From the NCBI GenBank assembly GCA_022797635.1, contig JAAWKZ010000001.1, positions 31,532 to 95,531 of the forward strand: a stretch of DNA of 64,000 nucleotides, written 5' to 3'. This stretch comes from Clostridia bacterium (GTDB taxonomy: Bacteria > Bacillota > Clostridia > TANB77 > CAG-508). Each line of letters begins with the position of its first letter. The first letter of the stretch is position 1. Shown here one piece after another: positions 29,810 to 31,035 of the stretch. The notes beneath the pieces are model-generated. The model worked only from the letters and a program-made list of their open reading frames with translations, was not told where the DNA came from and did not search any database. A program made the translations under genes and the position numbers.

Positions 29810-29980
29810 AAATGTAAAACCTTATTGCGCAAAATGTAAGTTTTGCGCAATAAGAGATAGGGGTAAAAAATAGAACCAGGTATTGTGGTTCTATCTCCAT
29901 ATTTCTTTCTATTCCTTTAACAAAGCTTATTTCAGCTTATTATTCTAACAACAAACTATACTACTTTTTAATTAAATTGC

Positions 29981-30353
29981 CTTAAAATCGATTCTGCAGC
30001 TTCATTATTTTGAGCTTATTCTAGGTTTTGCTAATTTATTATATTTATACTATTTAATTTTATGAATTTCTATATTTATTTGTAATAATCTTATCCAAAT
30101 CTCTGAAATCCTTATTTTTCAGTAATTAGCTCACTTTTTAGACAACAAGTTATATGTCTAATTTTTAAAAATGCCTTAAAATCGATTTTAGAGCCTCGTT
30201 TTTTTGGCATTTTTAGGTACTTTAATAGAACTACTAATTGCAAGCAGTTAGTAGTAATTTTCATATTAAAATAATTACTAGATTAATAATGTAATTAATC
30301 TAAGATTAATTTATGAATCAAGTATAAAAATGTCTTAAAATCGATTTTAGAGC
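29981..30353. repeat. three dispersed copies of a roughly 30-bp element with a palindromic TTAAAATCGATTTTA core
   Basis: Cores at 29981-30000, 30183-30202 and 30334-30353 (aatgccttaaaatcgattttagagcttc consensus), in an ORF-free AT-rich region. Confidence 0.6.
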
Positions 30354-30685
30354 TTCATAAATACAAATAATCTATATAACATATTAATCATTATAAATTA
30401 GATTAATATATATAAATTATAATTTATTAAAAAATTTATTACTTAACAAATGTTTGTTTTTTAAAATTCCTATAAATACATTATGAAATTTATAATTTGA
30501 TATTTGGTTGTTAATAAAATTCATTAGTTTTCTATTTTTTAATACGTAAAAAGTTTTAATTTTTTGACTATATGATATTATACAGTATATTTCTTGAATG
30601 CCTCTCTCCTACCTCACTTATATAGTAGATTCTACTTTATCTGTTACATCAAAATTTATTTTAAGTACATGATTGTGTCTTAGTT

Positions 30686-30719
30686 ATAAAAAGGGAGCAT
30701 TTCGCAAGAAAATGCTCCC
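30686..30719 (-). terminator. rho-independent terminator of the small-peptide gene
   Basis: gggagcatt-ttcttgcg-aaatgctccc followed by TTTTT on the minus strand. Confidence 0.5.
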
Positions 30720-30731
30720 TTCCACTGAACC

Positions 30732-30869
30732 TTAATGCATAAATGCATATAACAATAAAAAAAATCCTGGTTTTACGAAATATCCGCTTGGCTCAGTGAT
30801 TAATCCTGTTGCTATAGTAATAGCAATTAAGGACAAAACCATCTTCCGATTGAGGAGTTTTTTAACCAT
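30732..30869 (-). CDS. 45-aa hydrophobic membrane peptide (candidate type I toxin / small membrane protein)
   Basis: GGGAG RBS 8 nt before the ATG. Translates to MVKKLLNRKMVLSLIAITIATGLITEPSGYFVKPGFFLLLYAFMH. Consensus promoter upstream, terminator downstream. Below the ORF-track length cutoff. Confidence 0.5.
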   Translation of the reverse strand: MVKKLLNRKMVLSLIAITIATGLITEPSGYFVKPGFFLLLYAFMH

Positions 30870-30915
30870 AAACCCATCTCCCTTCTGTGATTTTCAAAAA
30901 TATCAATACTTATAT

Positions 30916-30944
30916 ATTATATATACATTAGTTATTAATGTCAA
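30916..30944 (-). promoter_or_regulatory. consensus sigma-A promoter TTGACA-17-TATAAT driving the small peptide
   Basis: On the minus strand: TTGACAttaataactaatgtataTATAAT. Confidence 0.5.
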
Positions 30945-31035
30945 TATAACAAATGTGATTTTTCATATGTACAATTGATTTTAAATGTAATTATGATATA
31001 ATATCCACAGAAATATTTAAAGGAGAAAGAATGTT

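Follow-up and report, generated by a model that had tools for sequence, protein, structure and literature searches.

The 64-kb stretch of a Clostridia bacterium genome analyzed here (the window, 64,000 nucleotides at full length) contains an AT-rich region between rho and a gene for a Xer-family tyrosine recombinase (xer), in which a repeated core, CTTAAAATCGATTYTRSAGC, is present as three direct copies that start at 29981, 30175, and 30334 and is found nowhere else in the 64 kb. The surroundings are as a preliminary description of this DNA had them, with rho and a small Cys-rich open reading frame (ORF) on one side and a small-peptide gene and the recombinase, which proved to be frameshifted, on the other; the AT richness is also borne out, with a GC content of 0.16-0.23 across 30050-30650. 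An independent public assembly (Logan SRR33005174) is identical to the window over 27757-32470. We propose that the locus is a module made up of a dif-like crossover site (P0, 29824-29851), three units of ~80 bp that contain the cores, and xer.

Exact matches to CTTAAAATCGATTYT number three, all on the + strand at the starts given above, with zero others across the window; with up to two mismatches, the core has 6 matches, against 1.6 expected. The longest ungapped repeat family is 45 nt long (29959-30003, 30153-30197, and 30312-30356), with spacings of 194 and 159. The three dispersed palindromic copies of the preliminary description are therefore real, and its positions for the first and third are correct, but the second had been placed at 30183 and the spacings given as 202 and 151. 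The perfect 14-bp central palindrome claimed for the element is present in copies 2 and 3 (TAAAATCGATTTTA) and imperfect in copy 1 (TAAAATCGATTCTG), which has TTC in place of the TTT of the other two. An nhmmer search of the 64-kb window with a profile of the whole unit matched only the three units listed in Table 1, which are paralogous, each with the core AAYGNCTTAAA-ATCGAT-TYTAGAGCGTC at its end.

The GC skew is +0.15 to +0.34 for 1-30 kb and -0.09 to -0.32 for 32-64 kb, except for one bin of 0.00, while long ORFs use the + strand as far as 29.6 kb and the - strand from 32.6 kb onward. Since skew and gene orientation converge at ~30-32 kb, the region is the replication terminus, where forks and genes meet, and not an origin. 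The origin-like or iteron reading offered earlier is rejected on the same grounds: the skew switches from + to -, and a DnaA-box scan of the window found 18 near-matches, against 22.9 expected, and no cluster. P0 is positioned at the skew switch. Its inner 28 bp form an 11-6-11 core (ATTGCGCAAAA-TGTAAG-TTTTGCGCAAT) that lies 130 nt to the left of copy 1 and agrees with E. coli dif at 19 of 28 positions. When the canonical dif sites of B. subtilis, E. coli, difSL, and archaea were scored over the window, no canonical site was found, and it was this scoring that exposed P0. Among the features of a single-recombinase dif-Xer module, the window has an adjoining Xer-family gene, ~11-bp inverted arms around a 6-bp center, and a position at the terminus; an intact RHR-Y catalytic domain is missing from the window, although the gene is intact in most relatives. 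Neither the reversal of skew and gene orientation nor the palindrome at 29821-29854 figured in the preliminary description.

Table 1. Features of the terminus locus, with positions counted from the first nucleotide of the window
Feature	Position	Strand	Remarks
rho	28244-29590		Left flank of the array
69-aa Cys-rich ORF, GTG start	29600-29809		Directly before P0
P0, dif-like palindrome CTTATTGCGCAAAA-TGTAAG-TTTTGCGCAATAAG	29821-29854		Arms 100% complementary, 6-nt spacer; directly after the Cys-rich ORF
Conserved hairpin GAGATAG..TAGAACCAGG-TATTG-TGGTTCTA..CTATCTC	29862-29905	+	Between P0 and unit 1
Unit 1: box ACAACAAACTATACT and core CTTAAAATCGATTCTGCAGC (29981-30000)	29940-30017	+	nhmmer 46.7 bits; exact core; aligns with unit 1 of 16 other species
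Unit 2: AGACAACAAGTTATATGTCT and core CTTAAAATCGATTTTAGAGC (30175-30194)	30134-30211	+	nhmmer 58.6 bits; exact core; aligns with unit 2 of relatives
Hairpin ACTACTAATT-GCAAGC-AGTTAGTAGT (CTACTAA..TTAGTAG)	30230-30255	+	Terminator-like match; conserved only loosely in relatives
Unit 3: core CTTAAAATCGATTTTAGAGC (30334-30353), short left flank	30314-30358	+	nhmmer 35.9 bits; exact core; aligns with unit 3 of relatives
LexA (Cheo-box)-like motif AACAAATGTTTG	30445-30456	+	Right end of the conserved non-coding block
45-aa hydrophobic peptide gene	30732-30869	-	Perfect promoter TTGACA-17-TATAAT (30944-30916); GC-rich terminator at ~30690-30723
Xer-family tyrosine recombinase gene	31036-32023	+	+1 frameshift at ~31874-31876; Pfam Phage_integrase 6e-30
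yneA-like LysM gene (SOS cell-division suppressor)	32072-32386	-	Convergent with xer; NCBIfam YneA 61.1 bits, cut-off 60

Collections were scanned for the exact 20-mer core in one genome per species; diverged copies are invisible to such scans, and the counts are lower bounds. The core was found at at least 120 loci, and the species include at least ~85 uncultured gut Clostridia, among them Clostridium sp. CAG:508, CAG:465, CAG:567, and Candidatus Merdicola. The matches were compared as loci of 8 kb. Nearly every assembly among the matches listed has a single locus, and the window has no copy outside the array, so that the element is local, as had been supposed, rather than a genome-wide repeat of the repetitive extragenic palindrome or miniature transposable element type (REP/MITE). 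Conservation of the copies in close relatives, which the preliminary description had left to a comparison of genomes, is thus established.

In the lineage of the window, rho is followed by a non-coding block of ~650 nt (29821-30470 in the window) that is retained at 66-76% identity in at least 17 species. Its order is P0, a compensatory hairpin, units 1, 2, and 3, the LexA-box-like AACAAATGTTCG, and then, in most species and not in the window, a P0 half-site (CTTTGCACAAAAT) that closes the block ~680 nt to the right of P0. The geometry of P0 and half-site recalls the attL/attR ends of dif-integrated elements. Half-sites were seen in loci L007 (3238-3290), L010, L050, L054, L060, L074, L106, L110, and L114, that of L007 forming an inverted pair.

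A second arrangement, termed type A, is found in other genera and runs P0, conserved sigma70 promoter, variable AT-rich stretch, degenerate core with a T-run, ACAAACTATAT box, core, GGAGG, and the xer ATG; P0 and xer are 195-370 nt apart in these relatives and 1.2 kb apart in the window. The core lies 52-71 nt ahead of the xer start codon in at least ~30 species, and in ~20 aligned species it is between the sigma70 promoter (TTGACt-17-TGaTATTAT, beside P0) and the xer ribosome-binding site. At least ~65 loci have a P0-like site (TTGCRCAAAA-N6-TTTTGYGMAA), which without exception precedes the core by 100-370 nt and has a single orientation. L027, L055, and L095 have a further unit right after the xer stop codon, and units are mirrored around P0 in L071 and L113. 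Convergent skew (+ on the left, - on the right) extends across P0, unit, and xer in 13 of the 15 loci with enough flanking sequence.

Genome and metagenome scans showed that the same association recurs outside the Clostridia, in four further lineages that have the core together with a lineage-specific, symmetric 11-6-11 dif-like palindrome and xer. In Saccharibacteria-like members of the candidate phyla radiation (CPR; at least 9 loci in 3 sublineages), xer starts 164-213 nt to the left of the core and ACGTCGTATAA-TGTATG-TTTAACGACAT lies 303-363 nt to its right. In Paceibacteria (L011 and L170), ACTGAGTATAA-TAACTC-TAATACTCAGT is located between core and xer; in Bacteriovorax (L063), the core is followed 54 nt on by ATTTCCTATAA-TATTAA-TTATAGGAAAC and then by xer; and in Urinicoccus (L051 and L176), xer is followed by TAGCAACAAAA-TAATAA-TTTTGTTGCTA and, 548 nt further, by the core. 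With the Clostridia included, the core is within 50-550 nt of a dif-like site in five lineages, and it is exact in all five, an identity that the exact 20-mer scan partly ascertains. The four non-Clostridial lineages are likewise at a + to - skew switch. Their recombinases are 24-45% identical to that of the window, and clustering of the neighborhood genes gave the recombinase as the sole neighboring gene in common. The dif-like palindromes differ by lineage, as dif sites do, and their symmetry suggests that a single recombinase acts on each. From base composition, ~10-20 chance matches would be expected in the genome collection. Literature searches for Xer/dif in CPR and for the motif string returned nothing relevant. 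As a separate observation, the core of CPR loci has a yebC-ruvC operon 1-2 kb away (L245, 6864-8795; L187, 3475-5394; L121, 2092-4153), and yebC is beside a second core copy in one Clostridia metagenome-assembled genome; this proximity may be plain synteny at the terminus.

The core is also carried by mobile elements. It is over-represented in IMG/VR, where at least 25 contigs contain it, ~19 of them non-Clostridial and with a GC content of 20-66%. Serratia T5-like phages have it at 30/30 nt in non-coding repeat regions (e.g., Kamaji, L147, 2501-2530), the copy in phage Slocum falls within the PhageTerm-predicted terminal repeat, and ~100 Klebsiella phage records include it. The T5 terminal repeat contains DnaA boxes and many palindromes (bioRxiv 10.1101/866236). 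In Limnohabitans phage DC31 (L148, ~2511), the core is beside five DnaA boxes, iterons, and a TAGTAG run, in what appears to be the replication origin of this phage. Shorter matches (21-25 nt), of marginal significance, occur in pHCM2-type phage-plasmids and in 4-kb MOBQ plasmids, the latter with a separate canonical terminator after the core. No dif-like palindrome was found alongside the phage and plasmid copies, and no copy of the core was found in E. coli chromosomes.

Several observations bear on whether the copies act as DNA or as RNA. Over 166 distinct units, the pairs of the putative hairpin have mutual information of at most 0.10 and do not covary, and mispairing is common, with A.C at pair 4-13 in 54% and G.G at pair -1/18 in 22%. 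Folding of each unit on both strands did not set units 1 and 3 apart from shuffled sequences (z-scores of -0.25 and -0.16); unit 2, alone in having an extra outer stem, reached -16.2 kcal/mol and a z-score of -3.1. Rfam searches (E of at most 1 over 7 kb and at most 10 over 1.3 kb) yielded no credible family, the highest score in the region being 20.6 bits against a gathering threshold of 50, and on 18 non-Clostridial loci they gave only one tRNA fragment. A sigma70 scan revealed no convincing promoter inside the units, with 19 promoter-like matches compared to 14.0 in shuffled sequence (standard deviation, 4.2), and none of several -10/-35 registers tried on the unit consensus fits. The two halves of P0 vary between A and G independently of each other. 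Given the lack of covariation, the poor folding, and the absence of an Rfam match, we predict that the copies are double-stranded DNA sites of a protein-binding type and not RNA elements. The same results, with the lack of a convincing promoter in the units, count against the earlier suggestion that the copies are operators for unannotated small RNAs.

The anatomy of the core points in the same direction as its company. Information content peaks over ~33 bp (ATAAAAAYGNCTTAAAATCGATTYTNGNGCNTC) and is stronger in the left half. The core itself, AACGCCTTAAA-ATCGAT-TCTAGAGCGTC, consists of two 11-bp arms around a 6-bp center; read by eye, the arms are inverted at 7 of 11 positions and agree with the CPR dif arm at 8 of 11. 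The arm-spacer-arm build reads as that of a tyrosine-recombinase site, but with a palindromic center. Compared by eye with consensus sequences, the core did not fit the sites of CodY, CcpA (cre), LexA, ArgR, IHF, Fis, CtsR, or FNR/CRP, nor those of Spo0A or ComK, nor sigma-D or extracytoplasmic function (ECF) sigma factor promoters. The central AANCGNTT we take, on the same kind of comparison, to resemble LacI-family operators only.

The recombinase is Xer-like without belonging to any curated subfamily; its NCBIfam scores are below the cut-offs for XerC (240 bits versus 335), XerD (218 versus 330), XerA (208 versus 220), and XerS (169 versus 267). The closest solved structure is E. coli XerD (1a0p), XerH being only a distant PDB match. 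The frameshift is due to an extra A (CAAATACGG in the window versus CAA-TATGG in relatives) and precedes the LGH...Y catalytic end, leaving a product of 286 aa without the catalytic Tyr. The same extra A is found in the independent assembly L001 and in a related species (L109, shift at ~1873); because L109 has it, it is inherited and not a read error. An independent +1 shift (TACCGG) lies 3 nt from the window-type shift in L079 (~6400), and the shifts of the window and L109 and of L079 each produce a CGG codon in frame 0. Judged from these sequences, the frameshifts could be either recurrent pseudogenization or programmed frameshifting, and the Xer of the window appears to be inactive or to depend on +1 frameshifting.

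We tentatively favor, with slightly less than even confidence, the view that the cores are predicted non-crossover binding sites, accessory or regulatory, of a terminus dif-Xer module. The terminus location, the linkage to dif and xer across lineages, the conservation at the DNA level, and the 11-6-11 anatomy are directly supported; the binder of the core and the effect of binding are what we infer. The protein that binds the cores would be Xer itself or a partner particular to such modules. One function could be the setting of xer expression, which is proposed because in most relatives the core sits between the dif-proximal promoter and the xer ribosome-binding site. Another could be the building or marking of a nucleoprotein complex at dif, in parallel with the accessory sequences of cer and psi and with the XerD unloading sites (XDS) of B. 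subtilis. A role as crossover sites is unlikely, because direct copies that are identical and 159 bp apart persist stably and the center is palindromic. Intact sites next to an apparently inactive Xer would fit a binding role free of catalysis. The recombinase-associated nucleoprotein or accessory sites envisaged in the preliminary description accord with this view, as the core stays with a dif-like site and xer in five distant lineages, and no rival explains this cross-lineage link as simply. The spread in phages and plasmids argues that the factor reading the core may be widespread or carried by those elements.

Several points weigh against the binding-site view. The identity of the core across phyla is partly a matter of ascertainment, an exact 20-mer having been required. 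The dif-like arms vary between lineages while the core consensus is constant, which is awkward for one Xer reading both, and in the window lineage the arms of P0 and core agree at only ~6 of 11 positions. The palindromic ATCGAT center is unusual for a crossover site, and binding alone is therefore proposed. In T5-like phages, DC31, other viral contigs, and some plasmids, the core occurs without a nearby xer or dif-like site. The window xer is frameshifted ahead of the catalytic Tyr although the cores are intact, which weakens the case for Xer activity as the force that maintains them. Finally, five CPR matches are inside a coding gene, 6-phosphogluconolactonase-like, where they encode LKIDSRA; these are probably chance matches, though their loci also have a dif-like site and xer.

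The alternative that survives best, though unlikely, is that the cores are operators of an unlinked transcription factor that controls xer and neighboring SOS or division genes, with no direct role in recombination. The core is palindromic with a central CpG, and in our own comparison AANCGNTT matches the LacI-family operator consensus; in ~20 aligned species it is placed between the conserved sigma70 promoter and the xer ribosome-binding site, three such palindromes precede a TTGACA-17-TATACT promoter in viral contig L131, and a LexA-like box and yneA are close by. However, no regulator gene is conserved beside the locus, the units of the window lineage have no downstream gene, and in CPR the core does not separate xer from its promoter. 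A lineage-specific factor, moreover, does not explain a core beside dif and xer in CPR, Bacteriovorax, and Firmicutes alike.

Less probable again is that the cores are bidirectional intrinsic terminators or insulators that shield dif from convergent transcription. The succession of A-tract, dyad, and T-tract, with a T-run after the core in most units, has the shape of such a signal, the units are found where genes converge (behind rho, and past xer ahead of yneA), and the stability of unit 2 is in keeping with it. Yet the stem is AU-rich and often mismatched without compensatory change, units 1 and 3 do not surpass shuffles in folding, and the T-run is substituted in several species (e.g., GTCACAATTTAGGAGG). 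A terminator 10 nt ahead of the xer ribosome-binding site would block xer, the 4-kb plasmids have a canonical terminator of their own after the core, and termination requires no sequence identity across phyla.

We see only a slim chance that the units were left behind by, or serve as docking sites for, small mobile elements integrating at dif via Xer, as integrative mobile elements exploiting Xer (IMEX) do, with the array built by successive integrations. In most species of the window lineage, the ~650-nt block is bounded by a full P0 on the left and the half-site CTTTGCACAAAAT ~680 nt to the right, in the manner of attL and attR, and the direct repetition of the copies, the two units flanking xer in some species, and the phage contigs with the core could be read likewise. 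The block is non-coding, however, and keeps the same order in at least 17 species at ~70% identity, so that it looks vertically inherited under selection; the window has no half-site, individual units are not flanked by dif-like repeats, and the phage copies have no adjoining dif-like site.

The chance is slimmer still that the cores are polar, Ter-like replication fork barriers that fix termination beside dif. They are exactly at the skew switch, in several copies of one orientation that are mirrored across dif in L071 and L113, and each is an asymmetric dyad with a strong left half, as RTP sites of B. subtilis are. A copy also adjoins the phage origin in DC31, and plasmids R6K and R1 have Ter sites near their origins. 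Against this, Tus and RTP are lineage-restricted, no candidate gene is conserved in the neighborhoods compared, and a lineage-specific barrier protein would not hold one site sequence across phyla. The opposed flanking groups of a fork trap are absent: the copies of the window are all on the + strand and to the right of P0, units are on one side of dif only in most species, and mirrored sets were seen in L071 and L113 alone. Nor would a barrier account for cores placed directly ahead of the xer start codon. Very unlikely is a reading of the units as small-RNA genes, three in tandem, or as cis-regulatory leaders, since, despite a -10-like TATAYT box ~20 nt upstream of each core, a dyad and T-run after it, and an orientation relative to rho and xer that is constant in Clostridia, they have no -35 element, promoter-like matches not clearly above shuffles, no Rfam family, and no covariation, and the orientation relative to xer is reversed in CPR.

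The binding-site view can be set beside known systems. An xer gene beside a dif-type site at the terminus is a hallmark of single-recombinase systems (PMC1914069; PMC5357621), and for XerS and XerH binding is stronger at the left half of the dif site (review, PMC5357621). Like the window, difSL-xerS (Streptococcus and Lactococcus) and difH-xerH (Helicobacter and Campylobacter) have the recombinase gene beside a dif-type site at the terminus, near-symmetric arms that end in AAAA and begin with TTTT, and a left half stronger than the right. Unlike them, the window has a protein that is neither XerS nor XerH, a different P0 sequence, a frameshifted xer, and, with one to four copies, a second conserved 11-6-11 element that has not been described for XerS or XerH. 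The linkage of dif and xer is thus of a known kind (XerS/difSL and XerH/difH), and what is new is the repeated, conserved second element, which is not described in the literature searched.

At cer and psi, non-crossover DNA within a few hundred base pairs of the Xer core site is needed for the synaptic complex (PMC5357621). The candidate non-crossover DNA here is similarly near, 50-550 nt from a dif-like site in five lineages. The cer and psi accessory sequences bind ArgR/PepA or ArcA, whereas this element is a chromosomal repeat with conservation across phyla, and comparison by eye with the published ARG-box consensus (TGAAT..ATTCA) found no such box in the core. The XDS of the B. subtilis terminus, reportedly described by Karaboja et al. 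in 2021, are said to be XerD-bound, to resemble the XerD arm of dif, and to be spread widely. They share with the cores the presence of several recombinase-type, putatively non-recombining sites in the terminus region; the cores differ in being clustered within 0.6 kb of dif and in having little likeness to the local dif arms. Ter/Tus and Ter/RTP also have asymmetric dyad sites at the terminus in multiple copies whose orientation matters. In B. subtilis rtp adjoins TerI/II, whereas no tus- or rtp-like gene was seen near the cores, whose neighborhoods share only xer; unlike Ter sites, the cores are on one side of dif in most species, and their consensus occurs in phyla without those proteins.

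Chromosome dimer resolution has been described as having two parts, the recombinase and dif, and FtsK as its activator, and we know of accessory DNA only for plasmid Xer sites. A broader proposal, possible but on balance doubtful, is that systems with xer beside a symmetric dif have an unrecognized third component, a second recombinase-type site with the consensus AAYGNCTTAAA-ATCGAT-TYTAGAGCGTC that lies a few hundred base pairs from dif in gut Clostridia, CPR, Bacteriovorax, and Peptoniphilaceae, has been borrowed by some phages, and would serve as a non-crossover loading, regulatory, or docking site. Its roles might include control of Xer activity, SMC unloading, or the capture of phages and IMEX. 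If so, a conserved element tied to dif and xer from Firmicutes to CPR would be a new part of a universal cell-cycle machine, and the core would be a simple sequence marker of the terminus in uncultured bacteria with small genomes; the phage copies, T5-like and other, hint at exploitation of the same factor by mobile elements. Even a conservative reading places the terminus, a dif site, and an xer gene in decay on the map of a gut Clostridia genome that lacks annotation.

The region 29815-29910, which includes the hairpin between P0 and unit 1, has a fold z-score of -7.3, and the stem is compensatory across 17 species (GAACCATG/CATGGTTC versus AGTACTT/AAGTAC); this hairpin may terminate rho transcripts at their 3' end or be a small structured RNA. 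Both additional palindromes of the preliminary description are present: CTACTAA..TTAGTAG, which had been put at about 30233, is the hairpin of Table 1, and ATTAATCTAAGATTAAT, which had been put at about 30283, is at 30294-30310. Units 2 and 3 are separated by a stretch that holds a second palindrome with a 6-bp spacer (ACTAGATTAAT-AATGTA-ATTAATCTAAG, 30277-30304); it shows little conservation in relatives and has ATAATGTA in common with E. coli dif.

None of the small ORFs (the 69-aa Cys-rich ORF, the 45-aa peptide gene, and a 50-aa ORF over unit 2) has conserved synteny in relatives. The Cys-rich ORF, which matched no Pfam or NCBIfam family and is not kept at this position in relatives, is doubtful as a real gene; one weak homologue lies elsewhere in L013. 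The 45-aa gene is absent from all related loci and is therefore probably a recent insertion between the array and xer, and its product might be a type I toxin-like or membrane peptide. A yneA-like neighbor also follows xer in L003, L027, L055, and L111. The LexA-box-like AACAAATGTTCG is present with at most one mismatch in at least 41 loci, and relatives have the canonical half-site GTTCG. In the window, AAYAAATGTTTG motifs are at 30445-30456 (+), 32504-32515 (+), and 32436-32447 (-), the last two flanking the yneA promoter (TTGACA-17-TATAAT); they are similar to the LexA (Cheo) box of Firmicutes, whose known consensus is CGAACRNRYGTTYC. In the gap separating xer from the convergent yneA, a long AU-rich hairpin at 32024-32080 (-) gives a weak Rfam match to the Staphylococcus small RNA sau-19 (31 bits versus a gathering threshold of 80) and is most likely a terminator.

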